DNA of 64,000 bases from a virus. The first letter of the stretch is position 1, and each line of letters starts with the position of its first letter. The notes beneath the pieces are model-generated. The model did not search any database. It worked only from the letters and a program-made list of their open reading frames with translations, and was not told the origin of the DNA. This document shows, piece by piece, positions 10 to 53,986 of the stretch. A program made the position numbers and the translations under genes. Where the stretch lies: the IMG/VR virus record IMGVR_UViG_3300045988_034541, positions 32,511 to 96,510 of that record. The stretch is one strand, 5' to 3'.

Positions 10-501
10 GTGGAGGTACAAATACTCCAACCAAGTGTGCCACTAGAGATAGAGTTCTTCGGACTTGAAACTAACGATAATTACGCTAATAATCAGTTAG
101 TTAAGGAAGAGGATATACAGTTGTCAACATTCCAGTATGACTTCAATATACATGTTTCAATAACTAACTCTGGGCTTACGTCTAAATCCTATGACTTTGT
201 AGCAGATGTTTACATAGATGGAGTTCCAGATGGGTTTATAACAATTCCTAGGTCTGGAACTCTAGACTATCAAGGGGTAACTTTCTTTGACAGAAACTTC
301 CACTTTAATTTACCAACTGATTTAACTAATGTCTCTAAATTATTGTTCACTGGATATTTCAGTACATACAGGGTGACTGTAGATGCAGATAGTGTAACAA
401 ATAACGCAATATGCCAATCTGGGGTAACTACTGAAATACCAATAAATCAGGCATATATAGGAGGTGACACAGCTAATATTTCTATAAATGTAATTATATA
501 A
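10..501 (+). CDS. receptor-binding/tail-fibre-like protein, paralog 1 (contains NNQLVKEEDI motif)
   Basis: ORF track. The N-terminal motif NQLVKEEDI recurs in two other RBP-like ORFs (5355-6392 and 9394-10014, minus strand). Confidence 0.45.
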   Translation: MEVQILQPSVPLEIEFFGLETNDNYANNQLVKEEDIQLSTFQYDFNIHVSITNSGLTSKSYDFVADVYIDGVPDGFITIPRSGTLDYQGVTFFDRNFHFNLPTDLTNVSKLLFTGYFSTYRVTVDADSVTNNAICQSGVTTEIPINQAYIGGDTANISINVII

Positions 502-743
502 TGAAGTTTGTAACATTCTTAAAGCAAGTATTCACATCCCACTCTGGCATATCATCTAAGAGACTCTGCGGAGTAGTAGGGTGGTTTGTCTGCTTGGGAG
601 TGTTAATATACTGTGCAATAAACGTGATTCAAGCCCCATTAATGATAGACACAGTCCTGTTGTGTTGTATGGGATTGCTTGGCATAGATTCAGTAACAGG
701 AATATGGAAGAGATTCACCAATAACGATAAATCGAATAAATAA
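501..743 (+). CDS. small membrane protein, two predicted TM helices (holin-like?)
   Basis: 80 aa with hydrophobic segments; lies between tail genes. Confidence 0.3.
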   Translation: MKFVTFLKQVFTSHSGISSKRLCGVVGWFVCLGVLIYCAINVIQAPLMIDTVLLCCMGLLGIDSVTGIWKRFTNNDKSNK

Positions 744-3700
744 TGAAAGTAATACCTAAACTACAACAAGGAAACACCATAGAGTCCGATAATACTAAAG
801 TAGTTAGGCCAGAAATTCATGAACCTATTAAAGCTAAACCTAAACAGTATTCCATTGTAGATTTAGGTGGAGAACCTTCTAATGATACCAGGTCAGCTGC
901 TGAAAGAAATAGAGACTATTGGCATCCTATTAAAGGAGCTAAAGCCAGATTCAGGGCTTCTATGTCCAATGAGACTAATCCTTTAGTTGGAATAGAAAGA
1001 ACTATACTTCCTTCAGCAGCTGGTGCTGCATTAGTAACAACTCCAGCCGCTGTTGTAGGAGGAGCTTTAGGTAATATGACTGTGGATAAGCTTACCGGGG
1101 GCTGGGGTAATTGGTTAGAAGATAAGACTGGCATTCCGTCTGAAATTGGAATTTATACTAATCCAGGAGCTTGGTATGGTGGTGCTAAAGGATATAAGAT
1201 TGGAAAGAACAAGTTAATAACTAAATCAATTAAAAGTGACGCTGACCTAGCTTGGAATCCTATTAACAAGAATCATTGGATATTTAATAAGGAAGCAAGG
1301 ACTCCTTCTAATATAGCAATGGCAACAGCTAACAGAATTACTCCATTTCTATCTAAGGTAGAGAAATTACCATTAAAAGTGGCTGCTTATAAAGCTGCCA
1401 AGAGAACTAACGGTAATGCATCAGTAAGTTTGCAAGATATAAAAACAATGCCAGCCGACTACACAGGTTCTTCAATACTAGGTGGAGGAAATTTAGAAGG
1501 TAGGAATCTATTAGCTAAATATATATTTGATGAGAATCCAGTAGTTAAAAGAATGTTCTTTAATAAAGCTACTAGTAATATCAAACCTATTAGCCGTAAT
1601 GAAGCAAGGAGAGGATTTAGTCATGGGGATAGATATGAGCAGCTTTATCCTGGAGTTCATAACAGAAGATACGAAATGAGTGCAGTAGTACCCTCTGGTA
1701 GACCTCTTAAGTTTGAGAATGTTACAAAGTTTACTGATTATGCTGGAAAGAATCCAATCGGCAAGGTTGTTGGTAAGGAGACTGAACCAGTAATGCGTAT
1801 GGGAGATAAAGAGTTTATGACCTTTAGGCAGCCAGGAACCGATTATATAGGTCCTATTGATGACGTTGCTGGACACTTGGTTAAGTTTCAAATGAATAAG
1901 GGTAAGCTTAGACAGACTTCTCAAGATATGTGGAAATTTAATCCTGCTGACTATGCTAAGAGGTGGAATGATTCTCCTAATACTGCTAACCAAGTTAGGC
2001 TTACTAAACAAGCTGCATTAATGGATAAAGTAGGTCGTCCGTTTATACTACAGCAATCTAATCCTATATGGATTGAAGGTAAGTCTGTTAGAAATCCAGA
2101 ATTGGTAACTATGGCACATGGTGGAAGATTTGATTTTAAGAAGTCCCCTCTGTTAAAGAAACAAGAAGAGATTAACGGTAAAAGGGATATGCGCAAGAAG
2201 TTCATCAAATCAAGTCGCCCAACCTATAAGAAGCGAATTAAGAAAGCTCAACAAGGAATGAAGTTCGTAAGTTATAATCCAGTAAGTAATCCTACAATAG
2301 ATTACACTGATATTACTAATCCTATTAATCCATTTAGTGAGTATAATTATAATACAACTTACGATAAACCAGAGGCTTTAGTAGTACCAGTAAGAGATAC
2401 TGATGAAACTGATGTAGTAGCTAATAATCCTACAGTAGAGCCAGTAATTAATAAACCAGTAGCTAGTAAAGTTACATATACTCCTAAATCCTATAAAGGA
2501 TTAGCTGCATTTAATAAGGCTTATGATGAAGTAGAAGCTAGTAATCCAGAAGCTAAGAAGTATAGGCAATTCCTTACTAAAATGGCAGAGCAGGAATCTG
2601 GATTTAACAGTGCAATTCAGAATAGAGCAGGAGCACCTGCCTATGGCTATTTCCAATTCATGCAGGATGATAAGAAGTATAACAACATTAGACAGTATGC
2701 AGATACGGATATAGAGACATTTAGAAACAATCCTAAGTTACAAATAGAAGCTGCAATTAAACTTGCCAAATCATTTGAGAAGGGATTCAGTAAAGAGGAT
2801 TTGGAACTTGCTAATAAGAATGGATATTCTACTTGGGGATTATTAGGTGGGGCTTGGTTAGCAGGTAATGGTGGTGTACGTAAGTTCTTAAGAGGACAAG
2901 GTAATCCTTCTGATAGACATTGGAGTAAAGAAGGTAAAGGTACTGATGTAGCTACTAGGATTAAGGCATTTAATTTTAAGGAAGGTGGTATTATTAAGTA
3001 TCAAGAACCTGCTCAACCTATTAAATATATGGGAGGTTATGATAAGAGAGGTAACATGGTATTGCCAGTTACTAATGAGAATGGTATGAATAATGTAACT
3101 TTACCAGAAGTAACAGTTACTCCTAGAAATATTAATCTAGCAGGAGCTGTAGATAGAGGAAGGAGAGAAGCCGCACCTTATGTTAGTACATTATTAACAG
3201 GTGCAATATTTGGACCATTATCAGTAGCAGGTGGATATGCAGGTAATGAAGCAGTTAATAAGATTACCAATGTAGCTAGTAATGACAAATATAAAGACTG
3301 GGCTGATATGCTTTCTAAGACTACAGGAATGAATCCGGTAGTTGCAGATTTCTTTAACATAGGTAATTTGGCAGGTGGATTTGGAATGCGTAACTTTGGA
3401 CCTAAGTTAAAGCCAGTAAAAGATATGGCTGTTGGTGGTAATAAATGGGCTAGAGCTAGAGTAATTAGTAAGACTATAAACAAAGGAACTCCTTCAGTTG
3501 AACCATTACCTAATAATGTAGGTTGGGGACCTAGACAATCCATACATGTAGTACATGACAAGAACAGTGCTAGACTCCCGAAATTATACTTTCCAGAAAG
3601 GTGGGATGCTATTCATGAAGGCGCTCCTGAAGCTGGTATATGGTATCAAGGTAAATTTGGCAATCCAAGAACAGCAGCTAATCACTCTATACCAGGTAAG

Positions 3701-3757
3701 GCAGAGAAAGCAGCTAAGGCTAGAGAGAGAGATTTGCCAAGAGACCTTACAGAGTAG
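743..3757 (+). CDS. large virion/tail protein with lytic transglycosylase-like domain
   Basis: 1004-aa ORF. The motif AEQES...GYFQFMQ resembles the family-1 lytic transglycosylase E-S/GLMQ signature found in phage internal/tail proteins. Confidence 0.6.
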   Translation: MKVIPKLQQGNTIESDNTKVVRPEIHEPIKAKPKQYSIVDLGGEPSNDTRSAAERNRDYWHPIKGAKARFRASMSNETNPLVGIERTILPSAAGAALVTTPAAVVGGALGNMTVDKLTGGWGNWLEDKTGIPSEIGIYTNPGAWYGGAKGYKIGKNKLITKSIKSDADLAWNPINKNHWIFNKEARTPSNIAMATANRITPFLSKVEKLPLKVAAYKAAKRTNGNASVSLQDIKTMPADYTGSSILGGGNLEGRNLLAKYIFDENPVVKRMFFNKATSNIKPISRNEARRGFSHGDRYEQLYPGVHNRRYEMSAVVPSGRPLKFENVTKFTDYAGKNPIGKVVGKETEPVMRMGDKEFMTFRQPGTDYIGPIDDVAGHLVKFQMNKGKLRQTSQDMWKFNPADYAKRWNDSPNTANQVRLTKQAALMDKVGRPFILQQSNPIWIEGKSVRNPELVTMAHGGRFDFKKSPLLKKQEEINGKRDMRKKFIKSSRPTYKKRIKKAQQGMKFVSYNPVSNPTIDYTDITNPINPFSEYNYNTTYDKPEALVVPVRDTDETDVVANNPTVEPVINKPVASKVTYTPKSYKGLAAFNKAYDEVEASNPEAKKYRQFLTKMAEQESGFNSAIQNRAGAPAYGYFQFMQDDKKYNNIRQYADTDIETFRNNPKLQIEAAIKLAKSFEKGFSKEDLELANKNGYSTWGLLGGAWLAGNGGVRKFLRGQGNPSDRHWSKEGKGTDVATRIKAFNFKEGGIIKYQEPAQPIKYMGGYDKRGNMVLPVTNENGMNNVTLPEVTVTPRNINLAGAVDRGRREAAPYVSTLLTGAIFGPLSVAGGYAGNEAVNKITNVASNDKYKDWADMLSKTTGMNPVVADFFNIGNLAGGFGMRNFGPKLKPVKDMAVGGNKWARARVISKTINKGTPSVEPLPNNVGWGPRQSIHVVHDKNSARLPKLYFPERWDAIHEGAPEAGIWYQGKFGNPRTAANHSIPGKAEKAAKARERDLPRDLTE

Positions 3758-3840: not shown

Positions 3841-4809
3841 ATGAGTGCTGACGGGGTAATCTTTAATAATGTATATGATAATGGATATTCTAATAACCAA
3901 GTAATCTTTAGTCTTAGAGATGATTTGAAGAATGGTAGAGTGTTTAAGAAAGGAGCTAAGCCATTAGAGAAGAGCCAGTTCATTGATACAGGAACTTCTA
4001 TGAATGGTGATTTAGACATTAATAAGAACATACAGAATTTCGTAGAGTATCTACTAAATCCTGAAACGCAACAGAGAATCGCTAGTATAGATGCAGAACT
4101 AGGGACTAAGTATGGCGAAGCAGCTAAGAGATTTGTCGATAGATATAACAATGGAAACTTAACTGTACTTCCCAGAAATAAGAGAGATGTAGGTTTGGAT
4201 AATGATATAATAAAGTTCTCTAGGTCTGTCCCTAGTGAGGAAATACTAACTACTAAAGACTTCGATAGAATTGCCTTTGAGATACTTAGGGACGATTTTG
4301 CTCATGTACCGGGTCATGAAGCTAAGCATGGAATAGAAACTGTGCAAGCAGCATTATTAAAAGATATGACTCCAACTGAGTATCATCAGTACGCTAAGAC
4401 TGGAGGACCTAGGCTACAAGCTCTAATGAAGGACAATATAGTATCAGAAGATGAGTTTGTTAAACGGATAATGAAAGAACATCCAGAGTATAACGAAGTA
4501 AGTGTTAGAAATAAATATAAATATCTAACTATCCCTTCAGAGTTTAACTCCCAACTACATCCCTTAATAGAGTTTGAACAAAGAGCAGGTAAGTCTGGAG
4601 TTCCCAACTTCAAGAGTGTTGATGAGATTGATAGACTTATTAATAATAATCCTTATGTGGGGACTAGTGAGAATAATGGACTTAGAAATCTTAGACTTCT
4701 ATTTAATTATATAATTAAGGATAAGAATGAATTTATGAGAAGATTTAATAAGTATGGATTTGGGGTAGTTCCTGCAACTACTGTTATTAACAATTATGAT
4801 AATGAGTAA
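3841..4809 (+). CDS. hypothetical protein
   Basis: 322-aa ORF with good coding continuity. Confidence 0.45.
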   Translation: MSADGVIFNNVYDNGYSNNQVIFSLRDDLKNGRVFKKGAKPLEKSQFIDTGTSMNGDLDINKNIQNFVEYLLNPETQQRIASIDAELGTKYGEAAKRFVDRYNNGNLTVLPRNKRDVGLDNDIIKFSRSVPSEEILTTKDFDRIAFEILRDDFAHVPGHEAKHGIETVQAALLKDMTPTEYHQYAKTGGPRLQALMKDNIVSEDEFVKRIMKEHPEYNEVSVRNKYKYLTIPSEFNSQLHPLIEFEQRAGKSGVPNFKSVDEIDRLINNNPYVGTSENNGLRNLRLLFNYIIKDKNEFMRRFNKYGFGVVPATTVINNYDNE

Positions 4810-5307: not shown

Positions 5308-6392
5308 ATGAGTAAAATAGTAACACAAGACAAACTGAATGAATTAACAGGTAAGAATATAGATTATGGGAAGGGGGGGGGTATTGTCCTCACTACCAAA
5401 CCATAGTTAGTCTCTGGGGTAGCGTAGTTGCGTCTAGTAACTACCAGCCAAATCAATTAGTTAAAGAAGAAGATATAGTTGTAGACAAAGACCTATTCCT
5501 TATTAATGCGGAGACAGGTAGTTTATACTTTGCTGGCGGTGGTACCTATGCTCAAATTCCAGCTATAGACGGCCATGAGGATTTTATATACATAGCTGGA
5601 GGAGGTGAAGCAATTGGAGCATTGTCTATGCTTGGAGGATTGTATGTAGTTAATCAGTCTACCAAACAGTGGGAATTAAAATACAAAGATACTGTAAGAG
5701 CTTATGGTTATGCTCACTTGGCTAGGTTCTCTACTGGCTGGGTATTTTATAAGGGAGCAGGAGGAGACGGTAAGAACTATGTTATTATAGTGTATGATGA
5801 CGGTACAGTAAAGGAGCGTAGTGTTGTAGGCCCAGTCAGTAGCATATCAACTGGGCCTTATGATTACTGCTGTGTTGGGGCATCATATCAGGGAGGAGCT
5901 AGAATATATACCTTCTTGGCTACATCTGTACCAGATTCTCTTACTTATTATACTCCAGGAATGTTTACACCAAGTGCAGTAATACAAGGGTTTCATTCTT
6001 CGCCAAGAAGTGTAGTATATAGCACTACTAGTAATTATACATACGTTAGTGTTAACCCAACTGGAACTCAATGGACTGCTGCAACCACTAGACCACAACT
6101 AACAGGTTTGACTAAAGGATTGTATGTAAATGAAGCTGGGACTAATACATTTATGCTTATAGGAAATAATATGAAGAGTGTGTCTACAGATAGGGTTAAT
6201 AATTGGACTACATCTACACTAGGTAAATATACTCTTACTGATTTAATATATGTAGATTCAAATTGGTATGCAATTGGTTCGAATGGAACTAAAAGACTCC
6301 TATTGCAGAATACAGCTTCTACATTTGACCAAAGTAATAAAATACTTGACTTGCCTGACTATTCTAGACAAGTAATTAAAATTAATACATAA
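5308..6392 (+). CDS. receptor-binding/tail-fibre-like protein, paralog 2, interrupted by a G9 tract (frameshift)
   Basis: ATG at 5308 encodes MSKIVTQDKLNELTGKNIDYGKGGG, then hits the G9 run (5373-5381) and terminates. The adjacent frame is open from 5355 to 6392 (track ORF 5622-6392 begins at TTG) and contains NQLVKEEDIVV. G10 or G7 would fuse the two frames. Confidence 0.45.
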
Positions 6393-9199: not shown

Positions 9200-9397
9200 T
9201 TAGTCTTTAGTTTTAACATAAAGTTGGCAATGGCAAGTCCCTTCTTCCATTTCCCTAAACTCTTTACACATACATACTGTATCTTCATCTCTTACTAAAG
9301 AGCATGGACAATACTTCTTACCATACTTCTCTTTATTCCTTTTAAGTCCTGCTAGGACTGTTTCCTTTACTTCTTTATTATCAGTTACTTTAATCAT
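9200..9397 (-). CDS. small Cys-rich protein with CPC...CMC...CHC motif (ferredoxin-thioredoxin-reductase catalytic-subunit-like)
   Basis: 65 aa. The spacing CPCx9CMCx10CHC resembles the FTR catalytic chain CPC/CPC/CHC signature. Confidence 0.4.
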   Translation of the reverse strand: MIKVTDNKEVKETVLAGLKRNKEKYGKKYCPCSLVRDEDTVCMCKEFREMEEGTCHCQLYVKTKD

Positions 9398-10039
9398 TGC
9401 GCTGACGCTGTATACAGTTCTATGTTTAGGTCTATTTCCCCACCAGTAAATCTAAATACTCTACCAGAATTATTCATTTTGACCCACCTTCCAGATGAAG
9501 GGAATGTTACTCCTTCTGCCCAATTCTCAGATTGAGAATCTACTGCTAATGTAATTTGAGACACTTGCCTAAGCATCACGTATCCCTCAAAACGTATCCA
9601 AACAGGTGTATTATATGGGTCTTGGTTAGGAAGTGCTAATTTCTCTAAGTAATATTTAAGAGGATTTGCTAAAGTCTTAGTGTACGTTCGTTCTCCTTGC
9701 TCTAATCTTGGAGTAATTGTAAAGTACATAGTATTGTCAGAATACGTAAACGGCTCTCCATTCACTGAACTCTCATTAACAAATGAGAAACGTACTCTAA
9801 ATTGCTGTATATTATTAATTGGCATATCCTGCCAACCATAATGAAGGATTACATTTGGAGCAGTTATAGCTGCCTCTATACCTTCTAACTCCACTAACTG
9901 ATTATCAGTATAACTAAATCCACTTTTAATCTGACATCCTAATTCAAGTGCTCTAGCTTTAGTACAGCACTTATTATCAATTACCGAGAGAGTCCCCCCC
10001 CATAGTCTTAGCTTCTAATTCTGTTGCTATTTTACTCAT
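9394..10039 (-). CDS. receptor-binding-like protein, paralog 3, interrupted at a C8 (coding G8) tract
   Basis: Minus-strand ATG at 10039 encodes MSKIATELEAKTMGG, then the poly-G run (plus-strand C8, 9994-10001) shifts it out of frame. The adjacent frame is open from 10014 through the GTG-start track ORF 9394-9894 and contains DNQLVELEGIE (the NQLV.E..I motif). Confidence 0.4.
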
Positions 10040-10301
10040 GGTTCTTGTATCGTTCTGTAATATTAATTAAATCCTTGTTGTCATGCAGTAACTCTAAGAA
10101 AGCCTTGTCTACTGCTATATCAAATGCAGTATTAGTAATGATTGGTTCTTTATGCACTCTCTCAATCTCTTCTCTAATCATTTGTTCAGATAATTGAGTG
10201 TATAATCGTCTGGTATAATCATTATACCAAGGCTCTTTAAATGTTACTATAATTTCTTCTCCTGTCATAAATATATTGTCTTTAGTAATCCAGGTAGGCA
10301 A
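10032..10301 (-). CDS. hypothetical protein
   Basis: 89-aa ORF. Confidence 0.4.
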   Translation of the reverse strand: MPTWITKDNIFMTGEEIIVTFKEPWYNDYTRRLYTQLSEQMIREEIERVHKEPIITNTAFDIAVDKAFLELLHDNKDLINITERYKNHE

Positions 10302-11441: not shown

Positions 11442-11658
11442 TATATATTGCCAACTCAAATTCACAGTTAATATTAAGTATATTGCCAACTCGGAACTCT
11501 ATGACGCGCTGTGGCAATCTGCGCCCCTTCGGGGCTTGCTTGCAATTAGTAAGATGAATAGAAATTAATATATATTGCCAACTCACAAGTACGGGTGCTC
11601 AAAATCACACCCCCCTCCCACTCCCGGGGTGGGTTATCATATTATATATTGCCAACTC
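11442..11658. promoter_or_regulatory. divergent regulatory region with 4 direct copies of TATATTGCCAACTC plus GC-rich hairpins
   Basis: Copies at about 11444, 11479, 11571 and 11645. GC hairpins gcccc-ttcg-ggggc (about 11523) and cccac..gtggg (about 11610). The region lies between the divergent gene blocks. Confidence 0.5.
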
Positions 11659-11966
11659 GGATGCTGGGTGAATATTGCAAGATTTGTGTATATTGCGGAT
11701 ACGACAGTCGTGTTACCCTTCACACCCCTCACCCATGTTTGGAGAAAATCAAAAGATTTATATCATTTGGTTTTGCTTTATAATATTCATTTTAAAATTA
11801 TTAGCTTATGTACACTATTTTATCAAACGGTTTAGTTCGTGTTAATTTTACAGGTTGTTATATCACAATGTCAGAATATAAAGAACTAATTGCAGGCGTA
11901 TAAAATTAAATCAAGAACGAGCAAATAAGCTCGTTCTATATTGTTTCACTAATAAATTATTAAACT

Positions 11967-12846: not shown

Positions 12847-13101
12847 ATGGACTACATCGAAGACGATTTCACAGATGCTCTAATTGATGCAATTTGTGAG
12901 AAATCACCAAGCACTTGGTATACCTTAATAGGAGAGAACTTTGACCCAGACGAAGAGACAATAGTCAAGGAAGCTGACAATAAGAAGGACATTGAAGATG
13001 CATTTAATGAAAGCAAAGACGACTTTGATTTATTATATGTAGTACTTAATGATGAATCTTATGCGGCATGTTCCAAAGGCTCTAAACTTATTTGGAAGTA
13101 A
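12847..13101 (+). CDS. small acidic protein
   Basis: 84 aa, rich in D/E. Confidence 0.4.
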   Translation: MDYIEDDFTDALIDAICEKSPSTWYTLIGENFDPDEETIVKEADNKKDIEDAFNESKDDFDLLYVVLNDESYAACSKGSKLIWK

Positions 13102-13118
13102 ATAACGATTAAAACCTC

Positions 13119-13436
13119 ATGGTGTATAGGTTAACCATGCGCACATTTATGGTATTCGAATACGTTCATTCAAGCGGAATTAAACTACGTCCGGCTAGAC
13201 CTTTAACTAACAGCATATTATACATTTACAATCCAATTGGCAACGAATGGATGCATTTGTGTAAAGAGGACATACATGGACACCTAGAGCTATTGACATG
13301 CTTTAGTAATGGTGCTACTATGTATCAAGTAATTGAAGGTCTTAAGAAGGTAGTAGAGTACTGGGGAGATGACTATCTCGTAGGTCGCAGAGACTTTTAC
13401 AAAGAGATTATAGACATCTATTCCTCACACCGATAA
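13119..13436 (+). CDS. hypothetical protein
   Basis: 105-aa ORF. Confidence 0.4.
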   Translation: MVYRLTMRTFMVFEYVHSSGIKLRPARPLTNSILYIYNPIGNEWMHLCKEDIHGHLELLTCFSNGATMYQVIEGLKKVVEYWGDDYLVGRRDFYKEIIDIYSSHR

Positions 13437-14338: not shown

Positions 14339-14677
14339 TTACTTTCGTAGGAATAATATAATCTACCACCATAATGGGTACGCCCGGAGACTAATGCAGA
14401 GCATCTCTTATACCAAACAGTATCTTCCTTTAATACTGGAGAGATGTCTTATCGTGAGATAAGGCAAAGGAGTGTGGCACAGGAAGGTGGATTCCTTTAC
14501 TTGTAATAATATTTTTGTTCGTTTTATTACAGCATATCCTCCCGTGACGGGAGTGGCATCATGACTAAGCCTTTACGTGGCGATGCTATAAGTAAGTCAA
14601 TAGACTGAAACTAATTAGTTCTTTATTAACGTTTCACTAAAACCTCGTGAGTGTATAGGTAACTCATTAGATTAATT

Positions 14678-15484
14678 ATGAAGACATTAAAACCATCTCT
14701 CAAGTTCAGTGTAGTAGAAATCACACCGAAAGATGCAGAAGTACTATTGTCAAAGTATTTGCACAATCGGCCTATTTCTAGAGACAATATCAACAAGTAT
14801 GCTATTCAAATGTCTGAAGGTAAATGGCATTTGAACGGTGAGGCAATCATTATAAATGATAAAGGTCTTACTGATAACGGCTATCATCGTCTAGCAGCGT
14901 GCATACAGGCAGGTGTTCCATTTCAAACTGTGCTCATAGAAGGTGTTAAACACGAAACTTGGACTACCATAGATACTGGTAAAACAAGAAGTGCAGGTGA
15001 TGTGTTTGGAATCATGGGCATTACTAATCCTACCCAGAAAGCTTCCATTGTGGCTAAATATTACGCTTTGACCAAGGGCTTGAAAGGTTTGGCTGATGCT
15101 GGCGCTCTTCACAGACTTAGAGGGACTGGTCTGACTCGTCAAGATTTGTTGAACATGTACAGAAAGTATGAAACTACCTTTGATGAGGTTACAGGACTTG
15201 CACTCAAGTACAAGAAGTACACTAAAGGATTACTCCATGCATCTATGATTGGTGGTGTAACAGCTTATCTTGTTCTTGATAAGAAGCATAAATTAGATAC
15301 TCTTGACGACTTCTGGAACAAAGTATCTACAAGCACACTTCCGTTGTATACGAGTGGTCGTAATCGTTTGCTGTCTGTGCGTGGTCAGGACAAACAAAAG
15401 GTTGTGACTGACCTGTGGAATAAATATATCTCTTCTAAAGAGAACATCCGCGTTAATATCACGTCTGCAATAATCTTTAAGTAA
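14678..15484 (+). CDS. ParB-like nuclease domain protein
   Basis: The motif KGLTDNGYHRLAACIQAGVPF matches the ParB/sulfiredoxin N-terminal (D)GHHR motif region. Confidence 0.6.
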   Translation: MKTLKPSLKFSVVEITPKDAEVLLSKYLHNRPISRDNINKYAIQMSEGKWHLNGEAIIINDKGLTDNGYHRLAACIQAGVPFQTVLIEGVKHETWTTIDTGKTRSAGDVFGIMGITNPTQKASIVAKYYALTKGLKGLADAGALHRLRGTGLTRQDLLNMYRKYETTFDEVTGLALKYKKYTKGLLHASMIGGVTAYLVLDKKHKLDTLDDFWNKVSTSTLPLYTSGRNRLLSVRGQDKQKVVTDLWNKYISSKENIRVNITSAIIFK

Positions 15485-18480: not shown

Positions 18481-19030
18481 GGGCCTAGATTTGGTTTTGA
18501 CAGGCGATTACAAGTTAGTAAGACGTGTAGAGTTCGTACCAACTCTTTAATAATGATACAGCAATTTAAGTGGAAACACTGAAGTAAGAATGGCAGCCTA
18601 AGCTGCTGGCTTATCTATTAATTTAGCTCTAAGTCGGGTTAATTGGAGAGACCTAGAAACAGAAGAGGTGTGGGAAGAAGCGTATAGAGCAGCCCACTTA
18701 ACTTGAAAGCCAAAGGTTAGTAAAGCTGAAATCTCCACTACCTATCTATGGGTTACAAATAGAAACGTTCTCCAACGTAAATGGAGTGGTGGAGCGACCG
18801 TTCGGTCAAGCCCAGGTTTGGAAGCGTCAGCTTCTGAACCTTTAAGTTTGGTAGTTTGTGAACAACTAAGTCGTAGCCCTACGAGGGAGACGTAATTGGT
18901 GAATTAACACTCGGCTTCTTAGTAAAACTACCTACATGCTGAACTCAACAGCTGATGTAATAAAATAGAGACACACGTAATCTTATTAATGAGGGTTGTT
19001 TGGACGGCGGTTCGACTCCGCCTAGGTCCA
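18481..19030 (+). ncRNA. ssrA: tmRNA (SsrA-like)
   Basis: 5' end GGGCCUAGAUUUGGUUUUGACAGG matches the tmRNA 5' consensus (GGGGCUGAUUCUGGAUUCGACGGG). 3' end GGACGGCGGUUCGACUCCGCCUAGGUCCAC matches the tRNA-like 3' domain. The acceptor pairs 18481-18487 with 19023-19029. Candidate tag frame ...NTEVRMAA ends in TAA (18603-18605), inside the hairpin GCAGCcuaaGCUGC. No ORFs in this 550-nt span. Confidence 0.75.
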
Positions 19031-19058
19031 CTATTATTAACGTTTAAATATCAATTTT

Positions 19059-20906: not shown

Positions 20907-21286
20907 ATCCACTATTGACGAATGGTGGTAGCAAAACTTGGTCTGAAGAACCAGTAGACATATTCCGGAGTATGTCTATGACTTAAAGGCTATATCAAAG
21001 AGTTGAAACCTGTATCTATTCGAACAGTAGGAGTTCACCTGATTAAGCATCAGAAAACAGTAGTGCAAATCTACTATAGATATTGTGTAAGAGAGAATCT
21101 ACACGGTCTGCATTATATAATCAGCATGCAGATAGGTCACCAAGCAAACCTCTTTCCTGCCTGGTCAAGTGTGCATTACGGTCTGTAAGTGGCGAGCGGG
21201 TTAACGTATGTCCGATTGCCGTAATGCCGCTTGTTTATTGTTTAGAATAAAGAAAGACTCTCATAACAATAAATTTAAACAAAGAG

Positions 21287-25299: not shown

Positions 25300-25371
25300 G
25301 CCCCATTACTTCAGTGGTAGAAGAGCAAATTCTAAACTTGTATGGCGTTGGTTCGAGTCCAACATGGGGCA
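25300..25371 (+). tRNA. suppressor tRNA, anticodon CTA (reads UAG)
   Basis: Canonical cloverleaf: acceptor gccccat/atggggc, D-stem cttc/gaag, anticodon arm gcaaa-ttCTAaa-cttgt, T-arm gttgg-ttcgagt-ccaac. Confidence 0.75.
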
Positions 25372-25373
25372 CT

Positions 25374-31030: not shown

Positions 31031-32992
31031 ATGGAAATGACATCATTAATTATCGTTGGTGTAGTTGTACTAGTTGCAATCATCACTATCATTGGGATTC
31101 TATCCCGCTACCGTAAATGTAAATCTGACGAATTGTTGGTAGTTTATGGTAAAACAGGCTCTCACAAAGAGAAAGTTAGCGAACGCGACGCTAAAGGTAA
31201 TCTGGTTGACAGAGAAGTTGAAATTAAAACTGCCAAAGTTTATCATGGTGGTGCAGCTTTTGTATGGCCGATTATACAGGGTTATGAAGTAATGTCAATG
31301 CAGCCGATTCAATTGAATCTTGTATTGAAGAATGCTTTGTCAGCTCAAAATATTCGTGTAACTATCCCTACCACTGTAACTGTTGCTATTAGCCAAGAAC
31401 CGCTGATTATGCAGAATGCTGCTAATCGCTTACTAGGTGCTGATGATGACGTTAAAGAAAGTTTGATTTCAGATATTGTTTATGGTCAGATGAGGCTTGT
31501 TATTGCTTCGATGACTATTGAAGAGCTTAACTCTGACAGAGACAAGTTCCTAGCTCAAGCTAGAGACAATATCAATACAGAATTGAACAAACTTGGTCTT
31601 TATCTGATGAATATCAATATCAGTGACATTCAAGATGCTGCTCAATATATTGATAATCTTGGTAAGAAAGAAGAGACTAAAGCAAGAGCGCAATCACAAG
31701 CTGATATCGCAGAAGAAGAGAAGAAAGGAGCAATCCAGATAGCTCAAACTACGAGAGAGAAGGAGATTGCAATTGCAGCAGCTACTAAGGAGCAAGAAAC
31801 TATAGTGGCTGAAACTAACAGGGAGAAAGAAGTTGCTATTGCTAAGACCACTAAAGAGAAAGAAACTCAATTGGCCGAGCAGCATAAGGAGCAGCAAATT
31901 GCTGTTGCAGAGCAAAGAAAGGAACGTGAAATTGGTGTGGCTACAGCCCAAACTGAAGAAGCATCCAAAGTTGCCGAGCAAGAAGCATTAAGAGCTGCTA
32001 AGATTGCAGAGCAGCAAGCTTATGCAACTGCTAAAGAAGCAGAATTTACTGCCAAAGCTGAAGCCGCTAAGGCAGAAGCAGAAGCAGAGAAGGAAGTTCG
32101 TATGGCAGTAGCAGCACAAAACCAAGAAGCTGAAACTGTTAAAGCACAACAGGAAAAGGAAGCTAAAACTGCACAGTATGAATCAGAAGCCCGTCAAAAG
32201 GCAGCTGAAGCAGAGAAAGCAGCAGGAGTAGCTGAACAGAAAGCTACTATTGAAGTTTCCAAAGCTAAGGGAGAAGCAGAGAAAGCTAAAGCTGAAGCAG
32301 AAAGAGTAGCTGGTACTTCTAAAGTTGAAGCTCAAATGGCAGTTGCTAAAACAGAGCAAGAACGTCAGGTGGAAGTTAACGAAGCTAAAGCTAAAGCTGA
32401 AGAAGCTAAGCTTAAAGCTGAAGTAATTATACCTGCCGAGAAAGCCAAAGAGAAAGCTAAAATTGAAGCAGAAGCTGTTAAGAGTGTAGCCATTCTTGAA
32501 GCAGAAGCGGAAGCAGCTAAAATCTTGAAAGCAGCAGAAGCTAAAGCAAATGCTACTAAGATGCAACTGGAAGCAGAAGCTGAAGGTACCAAGAAGAAAC
32601 TTCTTGCTGAAGCTGAAGGTAAGAAAGCATCTTTAATGGCAGAAGCTGAACAGAAACAGGCAATGGAAATGGCTCCGGCTCTTGCAGTTGAACATATGAT
32701 TAAATCAGGTATGCATCCTGAAGCAATCGTTCAATATGCAATGACCGACAGGTGGAAAGAAGTTGCTGAAGCCAACGCTAAGGTGTTTGAACATATCCAG
32801 CTTGGTAATGTTACTGTGTATGGTGACTCCAATACTGCTGGGCAGTTCATGGCTAATATGGCTAAGAATCTTGCTCCTAGCTTGGAAATTGCTCGCAATT
32901 TGCCCATTGCAGATTCGCTTAAGCAAATAATCACTGGCAAGAAGCCGGAAGAATCACCAGCTAAAGGTGATGAATTTCCTCCTGTAAAGTAA
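31031..32992 (+). CDS. flotillin-like SPFH (band-7) domain protein
   Basis: N-terminal TM helix, then a band-7/SPFH core, then a roughly 300-aa Ala/Glu/Lys-rich EA-repeat coiled coil, then a conserved C-terminus; this is the flotillin (FloT/YuaG-like) architecture. Confidence 0.75.
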   Translation: MEMTSLIIVGVVVLVAIITIIGILSRYRKCKSDELLVVYGKTGSHKEKVSERDAKGNLVDREVEIKTAKVYHGGAAFVWPIIQGYEVMSMQPIQLNLVLKNALSAQNIRVTIPTTVTVAISQEPLIMQNAANRLLGADDDVKESLISDIVYGQMRLVIASMTIEELNSDRDKFLAQARDNINTELNKLGLYLMNINISDIQDAAQYIDNLGKKEETKARAQSQADIAEEEKKGAIQIAQTTREKEIAIAAATKEQETIVAETNREKEVAIAKTTKEKETQLAEQHKEQQIAVAEQRKEREIGVATAQTEEASKVAEQEALRAAKIAEQQAYATAKEAEFTAKAEAAKAEAEAEKEVRMAVAAQNQEAETVKAQQEKEAKTAQYESEARQKAAEAEKAAGVAEQKATIEVSKAKGEAEKAKAEAERVAGTSKVEAQMAVAKTEQERQVEVNEAKAKAEEAKLKAEVIIPAEKAKEKAKIEAEAVKSVAILEAEAEAAKILKAAEAKANATKMQLEAEAEGTKKKLLAEAEGKKASLMAEAEQKQAMEMAPALAVEHMIKSGMHPEAIVQYAMTDRWKEVAEANAKVFEHIQLGNVTVYGDSNTAGQFMANMAKNLAPSLEIARNLPIADSLKQIITGKKPEESPAKGDEFPPVK

Positions 32993-47970: not shown

Positions 47971-49983
47971 ATGGAATTTGTCAAGTTTAAAAGAGCAGTC
48001 CATGCGCAGTTTAATCAACTAGCTGCTGGTGCAGACATGCTCTTTCTGACTAATGTAGACAAGGACGCATTATGGGATTGTTACCTTAATTCCTTTCCGG
48101 AGGAAGAGAGACAATCTCATAATTGCAACAATTGTAAACATTATATCAGACATTATGGTAGAGTTGTCGCCATTAAAGACAATAAAGTAGTAACCATGTG
48201 GGAGAACCTACAGTTGGATGAACCTTATGCTACTGTAGCTAGAAATCTCGATGCATTAGTGAAATCAAAACCAGTTGTAGATGTTTTTATCACTCGTGAT
48301 TATGAACTAGGAATTGATAGAAACAATGCCTATATTGACAGTTTGCAAGGTCCTAAAGTAATTACCTGGAATCATCTTTACTATCATATGCCAAATCAAT
48401 TGGTGTATACAGGAACTGAATCCGTATCTGCTGTAATGGGGACTTTACGCACAACTAAGGAAGTGTTCAAACGTGCACTGGAGGAATTAACTATCGATTC
48501 TATAGAAACAGTTCTGGACTTAATAGGTCAGAATGCTTTATATAGAGGAGAACAGTTTAAAAATGACTTAAGTGTATTCCTGGGTCATAAAAGATACTAT
48601 GATTCATTACCTGATGAAGAGAAAGACAACTGGTGTTGGGCAAACTTCAATCGTGTAGGATGTGCACGCATTCGTAATACGGCAATTGGTACATTGTTGG
48701 TAAATATATCATCAGGACTTGAATTGGACGATTGTGTGACTGCATACGAACGTATAATGGCTCCAGAGAACTATCAAAGACCTAAGTCAATTGTTACTAA
48801 AAGAATGATTGAGGAAGCACAGAAGAAAGTGCAGGAACTAGGTCTTATGGATTCTCTACCTCGTAGACATGCTGCCTTAGAGGATATAACAGTCAACAAT
48901 GTTATATTCGCTAACCGTGATGCCAAGAAGGTAATGGCTGGAAACATATTCGAAGAACTGGCCGCAGACACTAAAGTTAATCCTAAGAAGTTTGACAAGT
49001 TAACTGAAATTAGCATTGATGATTTCATTGCTAATGTGGTACCCACTGCCACTAACATAGAAGTGTTAATGGAGAGTAGGCTGTCTAATAACTTAGTAAC
49101 TCTTACAGCTCCTGTTAATAAGGATGCTAAGAATCTATTTAAATGGCCAAACAACTTTGCTTGGACATATAATGGAGGAGTAGCTGATTCTATTAAAGAG
49201 AAAGTAAGAGCTGCTGGTGGTCAGACTGAAGGCTTCTTAAGATGTTCATTAGCGTGGTCTAACTATGATGACTTGGATTTGCATGTCGTTGAACCTAATA
49301 ATCTTGAAATTTATTACTCCAACAGAATCGGCAGAAGTGGTGGTAAGCTAGACGTGGATGAAAATGCCGGATATGGCAAAACTCGCAAACCCGTTGAGAA
49401 CATTATATGGGTTAACGAACGCAAGATGCTTGAAGGTAAGTATGTTGTGTATGTTAATAACTTTCATTGTAGAGAATCTGTTGATACAGGATTTACATTG
49501 GAAATAGAACACAATGGAGAAGTCCGACAATTTGTCTATGACAAACCCGTTAAACATAAAGAGAATGTCATGGTTGCCGAGATTACTTACAGTAAATCTA
49601 AAGGTATCCAAATAAGAGAGCTAATACCCAGTACTAGCCATTCGTCAGTAAGCCTATGGAATATTGATACTAACAAGTTCCATAAGGTGAACGTGATGAT
49701 GCTGTCCCCCAATTATTGGGATGAGCAGGGTATTGGCAATAAACATTACTTCTTTATGTTGGATGATTGCAAGAATCCGGAGCCTGTTCGTGGATTCTTT
49801 AACGAATATCTTAACAGTGAGCTAACTCCTCACCGTAAGGTATTTGAGGTTCTAGCTGATAAGATGAAGACTCCTTACCAAGAACATCAATTGAGTGGAT
49901 TAGGGTTCTCATCTACTATGCGTAATTCCGTTATTGTTAAAGTGGACGGAACATTTAGTAGAACTTTAAAAGTCAATTTCTGA
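47971..49983 (+). CDS. large hypothetical protein (670 aa)
   Basis: Long ORF flanked by paralogs B and C; no motif recognised. Confidence 0.55.
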   Translation: MEFVKFKRAVHAQFNQLAAGADMLFLTNVDKDALWDCYLNSFPEEERQSHNCNNCKHYIRHYGRVVAIKDNKVVTMWENLQLDEPYATVARNLDALVKSKPVVDVFITRDYELGIDRNNAYIDSLQGPKVITWNHLYYHMPNQLVYTGTESVSAVMGTLRTTKEVFKRALEELTIDSIETVLDLIGQNALYRGEQFKNDLSVFLGHKRYYDSLPDEEKDNWCWANFNRVGCARIRNTAIGTLLVNISSGLELDDCVTAYERIMAPENYQRPKSIVTKRMIEEAQKKVQELGLMDSLPRRHAALEDITVNNVIFANRDAKKVMAGNIFEELAADTKVNPKKFDKLTEISIDDFIANVVPTATNIEVLMESRLSNNLVTLTAPVNKDAKNLFKWPNNFAWTYNGGVADSIKEKVRAAGGQTEGFLRCSLAWSNYDDLDLHVVEPNNLEIYYSNRIGRSGGKLDVDENAGYGKTRKPVENIIWVNERKMLEGKYVVYVNNFHCRESVDTGFTLEIEHNGEVRQFVYDKPVKHKENVMVAEITYSKSKGIQIRELIPSTSHSSVSLWNIDTNKFHKVNVMMLSPNYWDEQGIGNKHYFFMLDDCKNPEPVRGFFNEYLNSELTPHRKVFEVLADKMKTPYQEHQLSGLGFSSTMRNSVIVKVDGTFSRTLKVNF

Positions 49984-53712: not shown

Positions 53713-53986
53713 TTCTTATGTATGGTGATAGGTTATGGAATAGACATTCCAGCCAAAATATCACTAGGGGGGGGGGTGTAGGCTCCTCTTCGTTGCTTTT
53801 AGCAACACACCTAATGCCAGGCATTGGCATTATTGTTATCAGTTTATGGTAACGGACTTTAGGCTACGTTATATTTAATGTAGTGCTAATCGCGCAGAAC
53901 GATATTCGTACTGCCGTTTAGGGTCAAATTCAGATTAGTTATTAGATTATTCTTTACTTCTAATGAAGTAAGGTCTATTCTAGTGA

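Follow-up and report, generated by a model that had tools for sequence, protein, structure and literature searches.

Gene B, a minus-strand gene in a 64,000-nucleotide (nt) stretch of a viral genome (IMG/VR record IMGVR_UViG_3300045988_034541, positions 32,511 to 96,510; hereafter the window, in whose coordinates all positions are given), is quite probably a slipped-strand contingency locus that switches ON and OFF through a poly-G tract close to its start, as one of a set of paralogous loci. The length of the tract sets the reading frame of everything downstream and differs among related genomes, the open reading frame (ORF) behind it is intact and under purifying selection, and the family to which the gene belongs is modular. 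Concerning the mechanism, the poly-G at codons 14-16 would gain and lose G residues by slipped-strand mispairing during phage DNA replication, and the progeny would then carry gene B in one of two states, ON when it is in frame and OFF when it is not. Independent tracts in gene B and in its paralogues A, D and E would turn a phage population into a mixture of expression combinations. The products may be virion proteins for host recognition, in which case the switch would act as bet-hedging on host range, and from the sequences compared we infer that switching takes place at a high rate within one population. A slippage-based phase-variable gene had already been proposed in a first, sequence-only reading of this DNA, and the tract variation found in relatives supports that interpretation.

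Gene B and its poly-G tract

Read on the minus strand, gene B begins ATG(10039) AGT AAA ATA GCA ACA GAA TTA GAA GCT AAG ACT ATG GGG GGG GAC TCT CTC GGT AAT TGA. Its first 13 codons, from the ATG at 10039-10037, encode MSKIATELEAKTMGG and lead into a run of eight G residues (G8, 10001-9994, seen as C8 on the plus strand), past which frame 0 continues as DSLGN and reaches a TGA stop at 9979-9977. Gene B is out of frame in the window, with an OFF frame of 20 codons and the product MSKIATELEAKTMGGDSLGN. In-silico editing of the tract opened a single ORF, with its stop at 9394-9396, at G7 (214 amino acids, aa) and at G10 (215 aa), and left frames of 18-20 codons at G6, G8 and G9. The restored ORF takes in the GTG-start ORF at 9394-9894 together with the motif YTDNQLVELEGIE, and in-frame, full-length homologues of gene B are present in public data, for example one of 215 aa that is 96% identical (P0001). 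The sequence-only reading had described the leader from ATG 10039 that runs into G8 and an early stop (9977-9979), the rescue by G7 or G10 and the adjacent frame with its GTG ORF and N-terminal motif, and all of this was borne out. Two of its descriptions have to be revised. The gene had been called OFF by one repeat unit, which is correct with respect to the rare G7 form, one deletion away, but not with respect to the usual ON form (G10 or equivalent), which is two insertions away. Additionally, the leader had been treated as a separate element; instead, it represents the first 15-24 codons of a conserved N-terminal module whose Gly2-4 are encoded by the G tract.

In the window, gene B is established in a minus-strand operon of small genes without assigned function. 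The TAA stop of the 89-aa ORF upstream overlaps the gene B start (ATGAGTAA), so the two are probably translationally coupled, and in genomes with the inverted arrangement described below the same junction precedes gene A. Downstream, the gene B stop is overlapped by the start of a 65-aa protein (9200-9397, minus strand), which matches the ferredoxin-thioredoxin reductase beta-chain family (FeThRed_B, PF02943, E = 1.5e-13) and accompanies gene B in every arrangement.

Tract length in related genomes

Megablast against 50,697 deposited phage genomes gave no close match to the window, and its conserved proteins reach at best about 30-50% identity with those of Bacillus, Salmonella, Pseudomonas and uncultured phages. 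The same lineage was found in metagenome contigs of IMG/VR and ENA/JGI at 87-99% protein identity. Several of these contigs bear a human-gut metagenome label, and the genome-sized ones measure about 175-186 kb. A host was also sought, and the scan of genome contigs gave no relative, nor was there a cultured one.

The gene B tract was typed in 64 distinct related contigs, mostly of human-gut metagenomes, as assembled consensus sequences. Pure or interrupted, it has an effective length of 8-11 positions, and all three frames occur, with 25 contigs ON and 39 OFF. The in-frame alleles are G10 (11 contigs), G9A (8), ATA-G9 (3) and the interrupted G6AGGG, GGGAG6 and ATA-G7AG (3 together), and the out-of-frame alleles are G9 (21), G8 (8), ATA-G8 (4), ATA-G7 (3) and the single alleles G8A, G7A and ATA-G10 (3 together). 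Comparison with related genomes had been proposed in the sequence-only reading, and it showed a tract whose position is kept and whose length is not; neither a fixed length giving an intact ORF nor tract-free continuous proteins, the two outcomes which that reading had set against a switch, were encountered among these relatives.

The downstream ORF of gene B is intact in all 19 distinct DNA alleles (196-199 codons), and the ratio of non-synonymous to synonymous substitution rates (dN/dS) is much the same whether the alleles of a pair are both ON (0.24), both OFF (0.25) or mixed (0.26). Equal dN/dS and intact ORFs mean that the OFF alleles are not in decay and that the state must change faster than the sequence diverges. 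For gene A, 28 alleles were scored as 10 ON and 18 OFF. Interrupted tracts were found in six of its 10 ON alleles and in three of the 18 OFF alleles, an enrichment in keeping with a locking of the gene in the ON state by some lineages.

The leader and G9 also precede the representative ORF in each of two large clusters of N-truncated forms (166 and 143 aa). In the output of gene callers these genes fall apart into a short leader and an N-truncated ORF of 166 or 143 aa, and the family is systematically mis-annotated. An estimate of ON/OFF frequency from the sizes of protein clusters at 90% identity was dropped, because the "full-length" cluster also holds members of 166 and 143 aa.

Homopolymer background of the window

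The G tracts of the window measure 8, 9 and 10 bases (C8 on the plus strand, G9 and G10), and only four other homopolymers of at least 6 bases (A6 once, T6 twice and C6 once) occur in its 64 kb. The density of runs of at least 6 bases is 0.11 per kb, and it is in a single gene family that the long ones are concentrated. According to a base-composition model (the window has 37% G+C), about 0.25 G runs of at least 8 bases would be expected against the three observed, a number far in excess of chance. The same model predicts about 55 A runs of at least 6 bases, against the single A6.

Synonymous-codon shuffles of 68 ordinary ORFs (43 kb, 200 replicates) place the depletion at the level of codon choice, with nine A runs of at least 5 bases observed against 121 +/- 7.5 expected, four T runs against 57.5 and one G run against 7.2. 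Specifically, the 88 Lys-Lys codon pairs consist of AAGAAG (49), AAGAAA (36) and AAAAAG (3), with no AAAAAA, GGG makes up 7.5% of the Gly codons, and a G run is used for none of the five ordinary Gly-Gly-Gly tripeptides. Other simple-sequence repeats were searched for in the window and none of note was found. The avoidance of homopolymers suggests that slippage-prone sequence is strongly selected against in this phage, and because the genome purges homopolymers by synonymous codon choice, the tracts look retained rather than tolerated.

The paralogous family

The lineage has at least five members of the gene B family (A-E), of which A, B, D and E each carry a tract of their own, and at least five hypervariable G tracts overall. 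Genes A, B and C have a common N-terminal module, M-S/T-(N)-K-I-A/V-T-E/Q ... G-G ... C-x-T-K/R ... Y-x-x-N-Q-L-V-x-E-x-I, and the shared C-x-T-K and Y-x-x-N-Q-L-V-x-E-x-I elements confirm the paralogy that had been suggested for the genes at 10-501, 5308-6392 and 9394-10039. Gene A is also OFF here, as had been noted earlier, since its G9 is out of frame; tract editing opens it only at G7 or G10, to 360 or 361 aa. Gene C is complete in two related contigs (L010 and L017), where it encodes 180 aa, starts with MTNKIATEQYLINLAGGS and is without a G tract. Genes D and E are located just left of the window in related contigs (L016 3474/4148, L017 3884/4557, L021 3833/4505). Gene D encodes 129 aa, starts with MALIQNEDNKCPTTKQVNDALKSMGG-Gn and has a tract of G7-G11 that is ON at G8 or G11, and gene E encodes 164 aa, starts with MESTNELVTAAEARAEGLSLDGVANNRCITKQQFNDNLPSGGG-Gn and has a tract of G6-G10 that is ON at G9. 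The tract follows the N-K/R-C-x-T-K motif in D and E and precedes it in A and B. Being at non-homologous positions, the tracts were not inherited from one ancestral site, which points to separate retention by selection. G9 is the commonest length at all four tracts, but the state that it gives is OFF in A and B and ON in E.

The nucleotide sequence of the module is nearly the same even in relatives whose C-terminal domain has only 31-49% identity, and natural in-frame forms have GG, GGG or GGGG at the tract. Reciprocal chimeras were also found, one with the B N-terminus on an A body (P0077) and one with the A N-terminus on a B body (P0042). A profile search with the N-terminal module matched only unnamed proteins of at most 112 aa. 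In a more divergent relative (L014, at 11991), an A-type N-terminal segment (RIVTQSKLNELVGG...) and G9 stand before a wholly different C-terminal domain, so the A-type N-terminus and its tract would be a reusable front end for different cassettes. Furthermore, in a contig without gene A (L001, about 12950-13150; also in L004 and L015), the A-type start ATGAGTAAAATAGTAACACA is joined to about 13 codons that resemble the 3' end of paralogue C, and the same terminator follows the fusion in all three contigs. To judge from its sequence, this fusion is what remains of a cassette that was deleted or exchanged.

Predicted function of the products

In the AlphaFold2 model of the gene B product (mean predicted local distance difference test, pLDDT, of 79), the C-terminal domain is a beta-sandwich (block pLDDT 79-94), and residues 1-21, including the tract-encoded Gly, are of low confidence (pLDDT < 50). 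The gene A model (pLDDT 46.6) was too poor for a fold search. Scans of the family proteins against Pfam and PHROGs, a sequence-profile search of PDB and tblastn against the 50,697 phage records gave no match, and Foldseek with the gene B model found no significant neighbour in PDB and BFVD. No recognisable tail genes were detected within 10 kb of the family genes, the neighbours being an SLT/glucosaminidase protein of 1004-1247 aa, a holin-like membrane protein, an HNH endonuclease and a protease-like protein. The label "RBP-like" (receptor-binding protein, RBP) given in the sequence-only reading therefore stands as a description of modular architecture, with no homology or fold match behind it.

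A conserved N-terminus followed by hypervariable, swappable, beta-rich C-terminal domains is the classic architecture of host-recognition proteins. A receptor-binding role of the family is plausible, given a constant N-terminus, C-terminal domains that can be exchanged (as in the reciprocal A/B chimeras) and are predicted as a beta-sandwich in gene B, the number of paralogues and the glucosaminidase neighbour, and we consider the chances for and against it to be about even. Gene A also has an Asp-box-like motif, S-x-D-x-G-x-x-W, spotted by eye; motifs of this type occur in carbohydrate-active beta-propellers. It is quite possible, if somewhat short of probable, that the switch is real and serves another function, such as capsid or tail decoration, injected effectors tied to the polyvalent-type glucosaminidase neighbour, or superinfection or anti-defence factors. 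Such a role would suit small proteins (129-361 aa) that match no RBP or tail-fibre family or fold and are flanked by the genes of the neighbours named above, of which the glucosaminidase has a weak Kinase-PolyVal match, and also the joining of the B leader to the large glucosaminidase/SLT coding sequence in one contig (L027). However, the conserved N-terminus with its swappable beta-rich domains and the Asp-box-like motif of gene A speak for host recognition.

The SLT/glucosaminidase itself is divided in the window into a 1004-aa protein (743-3757) and a separate 322-aa ORF (3841-4809). In L010 (15808-19551) it is a single protein of 1247 aa with the weak Kinase-PolyVal match, and in L027 (about 14480-14830) the junction of its coding sequence with the gene B leader is direct, at a short GCAGAA/ACAGAA homology.

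Other explanations of the frame changes

Alternatively, the DNA could be stable at about G9, with full-length protein made by a -1 ribosomal frameshift on G GGG GGG or through an extra G inserted by RNA polymerase as it transcribes the run, in a fixed ratio of short to long product. As is known from slippery sites, tRNA-Gly can re-pair perfectly in the -1 frame on a G run. G9 is indeed the commonest length in both A and B, which would need the same +1-nt correction, and the avoidance of homopolymers fits slippage-prone transcription equally well. A fixed recoding signal is nevertheless unlikely as the main mechanism, because the frame relation is not conserved (effective lengths of 8, 9, 10 and 11 all occur, and the G8 of this window would need the opposite shift), about 40% of the alleles are already in frame, and no stimulatory RNA structure was found 3' of the tracts in comparison with shuffles (z = -0.73 for B and -1.37 for A). 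Gene E, moreover, is in frame at the same modal length. Slippage of RNA polymerase or of the ribosome on G8-G10 could still add some leakiness on top of DNA-level switching. Reading of TAG as a sense codon was tried as well and rejected, as it rescues neither OFF frame; 12 of the 71 ORFs of the window end in TAG.

That the tract is truly in frame everywhere and that homopolymer miscalls in sequencing or assembly shift the frames seems very improbable. Long G runs are error-prone on several platforms and at least one related contig begins inside the tract, but each tract takes 5-7 length values across dozens of independent short-read assemblies, and point-interrupted alleles (G6AGGG, G9A, G5AG4) cannot be length miscalls. 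Tracts with a common G9 mode but different ON lengths exclude a uniform bias, and a uniform one-base miscount is ruled out by G9 being OFF in A and B but ON in E. The count in the window itself may be off by one, which would change its state but not the conclusion. Hardly credible at all is a decaying pseudogene, a dead paralogue broken by chance at a G run, since gene B, despite being out of frame here and in most assemblies and having no detectable homology to functional families, is broken at the tract only, is in frame in about 40% of alleles and keeps an intact downstream ORF in 19 of 19, with a dN/dS of about 0.25 that is equal in ON and OFF alleles.

Several points do weigh against a slippage switch in host-recognition genes. 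Differences among assemblies could, taken alone, in principle reflect slow divergence. The share of OFF alleles (about 60%) and the G9 mode in A and B also fit -1 slippage of the ribosome or RNA polymerase on a mostly fixed G9. Concerning function, the family is without a Pfam, PHROG, PDB or BFVD match, has no tail genes nearby, and includes in gene B a member of a small-gene operon.

Segment inversion between genes A and B

Genes A and B open with 21 nt that together make up an inverted repeat of 90% complementarity, which coincides with the breakpoints of a 4.7-kb segment inversion in related genomes. The arrangement was typed in 55 related contigs. That of the window was found in 38, of which 21 have no detectable gene A. 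The whole A-to-B segment is inverted in 10, so that A stands behind the 89-aa ORF and B behind the glucosaminidase gene, and the A cassette alone is inverted in the other seven, together with its own upstream region and palindromic terminator. Rearranged contigs include L009/L020, L027, L041, L043, L045, L052, L061 and L070. The contigs with an inverted segment are not mutual closest relatives by sequence within the segment, and the inversion may therefore recur. No recombinase was found when nine ORFs located between 6575 and 11054 were scanned with Pfam or PHROGs (only the FeThRed_B-like match was obtained), three ORFs of 69, 52 and 84 aa and the remainder of the genome of about 180 kb being outside these scans. 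Homologous exchange between the paralogous gene starts would be the simplest explanation of the inversion.

The third tract and other features of the window

A third G tract had been described as G9 (53767-53775) in an intergenic segment after a short ORF. It is in fact G10 and is located inside a 44-aa ORF (ATG 53718-53852). In 22 contigs this tract ranges from G6 to G12 with all three downstream frames, so the frame of the 44-aa ORF is not maintained. The approximately 120 nt on its 3' side (53767-53900 region), the first 94 nt of which have z = -5.3, can form five hairpins, whose stems are invariant or changed only by G-C/G-U or U-G/U-A replacements, with variable loops and no double compensatory changes. 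No Rfam family matched this stretch. The third tract is probably an RNA-level element, the first stem of which uses the G run, rather than part of a 44-aa gene, and probably is not the same kind of switch as that of gene B. The coordinates of this tract and of the family features are given in Table 1.

Table 1. Location of gene B, its parts, its paralogues and associated repeats in the window.
Feature	Position	Strand	Basis
Gene B, whole putative phase-variable gene	9394..10039	-	Sequence read, tract editing, in-frame homologues
Poly-G tract of gene B, codons 14-16, encodes Gly2-4	9994..10001	-	Sequence read; same site varies in 64 related contigs
OFF-state reading frame of gene B, 20 codons	9977..10039	-	Sequence read, tract editing
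Conserved N-terminal module of about 58 aa, MSKIATE..GGG..NKCCTKARALELGC..YTDNQLVELEGIE	9865..10039	-	Comparison with relatives
Variable C-terminal domain of gene B	9394..9864	-	AlphaFold2 beta-sandwich; divergent cassettes in P0068-P0078
Upstream 89-aa ORF, TAA stop overlapping the gene B start	10032..10301	-	Sequence read
Gene A, paralogue of B, ATG 5308, G9 tract at 5373-5381	5308..6392	+	Tract editing, alleles in relatives
Gene C, third paralogue, incomplete at the edge of the window	10..501	+	Alignment; complete in L010/L017
Inverted repeat, left arm, first codons of gene A	5308..5328	+	Inverted-repeat search
Inverted repeat, right arm, first seven codons of gene B	10019..10039	-	Inverted-repeat search
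Third tract, G10, 5' edge of five conserved hairpins, in a doubtful 44-aa ORF	53767..53776	+	Run list, relatives

Apart from these, the divergent intergenic region between the minus- and plus-strand gene blocks harbors four copies of TATATTGCCAACTC(A/G) at 11444-11661, which could be candidate phage promoters or operators. Between 17840 and 52847, 27-28 tRNA genes stand among the plus-strand genes, including one with the suppressor-type anticodon CTA (25300-25372), and a transfer-messenger RNA (18481-19033) and a RAGATH-34 RNA (20909-21016) were also annotated. A 670-aa protein (47971-49983, phrog_1735) is 47-50% identical to proteins of TsarBomba-like Bacillus phages, Salmonella phage SSBI34, Serratia phages and a human-faecal phage contig.

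A layered system of diversification can be imagined for this prevalent, uncultivated lineage, tentatively and as something less likely than not, in which four or more genes with poly-G switches and interchangeable C-terminal cassettes are combined with cassette inversion or transposition, an RNA-tuning tract and slippage-prone replication. If this were true, four switched genes would yield up to 16 expression combinations, whole cassettes would invert or transpose between two convergent operons at the conserved gene starts, and a fifth tract (G6-G12) would tune a structured RNA element. The cost of slippage-prone replication would then be visible as the more than 10-fold synonymous purge of other homopolymers.

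Comparison with known systems

Bacterial contingency genes with poly-G or poly-C tracts are known in Campylobacter, Neisseria and Haemophilus. Gene B resembles them in having the tract in the 5' part of the ORF, in the proposed slipped-strand mispairing and in the presence of several loci per genome, and differs in that the locus is in a virus. In C. jejuni, tract lengths reportedly tend towards G9, with which the G9 mode of the present tracts would agree. Invertible tail-fibre segments are also long known, namely the G segment of Mu and the C segment of P1, with their invertases Gin and Cin, and the shufflons. Like Mu G and P1 C, the segment between A and B is flanked by short inverted repeats, holds alternative genes of host-range type and occurs in both orientations among relatives. 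In contrast to them, no recombinase was found in the scanned ORFs of the segment, and its repeats lie at the very start of two complete genes (21 nt each), with the effect that inversion swaps the operon context and not the C-terminal halves.

To our knowledge, poly-G phase-variable phage genes have been shown experimentally only in the Fletchervirus phages of Campylobacter. Tracts of 7-11 G are described there in up to four receptor-binding protein genes, and they let a subpopulation infect Campylobacter cells from which the usual receptor is absent (Sorensen et al., 2021, Cell Rep 35:109214, as summarised in PMC12633550 and PMC8713573). The likeness extends to G tracts within phage genes (7-11 there, 6-12 here), to several paralogues per genome each with its own tract (6-11 G in A, B, D and E) and to frameshift ON/OFF control, by which subpopulations would arise. 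The two differ in that no protein or genome sequence relationship to Fletchervirus was found by megablast and tblastn among the 50,697 phage records, where the best matches of the other window proteins, to Bacillus, Salmonella and Pseudomonas phages, stay below 50% identity. In our case, moreover, the RBP function and the switching within populations are presumed from assemblies of human-gut metagenomes, and cassette inversion or exchange at conserved gene starts and genome-wide purging of homopolymers are present in addition. On this comparison, Fletchervirus appears to be the closest known system, and the gene B locus would work alike.

A looser parallel is offered by T2, T4 and other coliphages, in which homopolymers of at least 6 bases have recently been proposed as contingency loci (Gomez, Barrick & Waters, 2025, bioRxiv, PMC12633550). 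T4 and T6 have 191 and 188 short tracts, respectively, which are spread over all gene classes and under-represented in tail fibres (PMC12633550). Common to both cases are DNA-polymerase slippage at homopolymers in phage genes and a proposed bet-hedging role; unlike the T-even phages with their more than 100 scattered tracts, the window has only 0.11 runs of at least 6 bases per kb and keeps the long ones in one gene family. The same strategy as in Fletchervirus would now be represented in an unrelated and abundant human-gut phage, with evidence from natural populations in about 60 independent assemblies, and repeat-driven bet-hedging may be a general tactic of phages.

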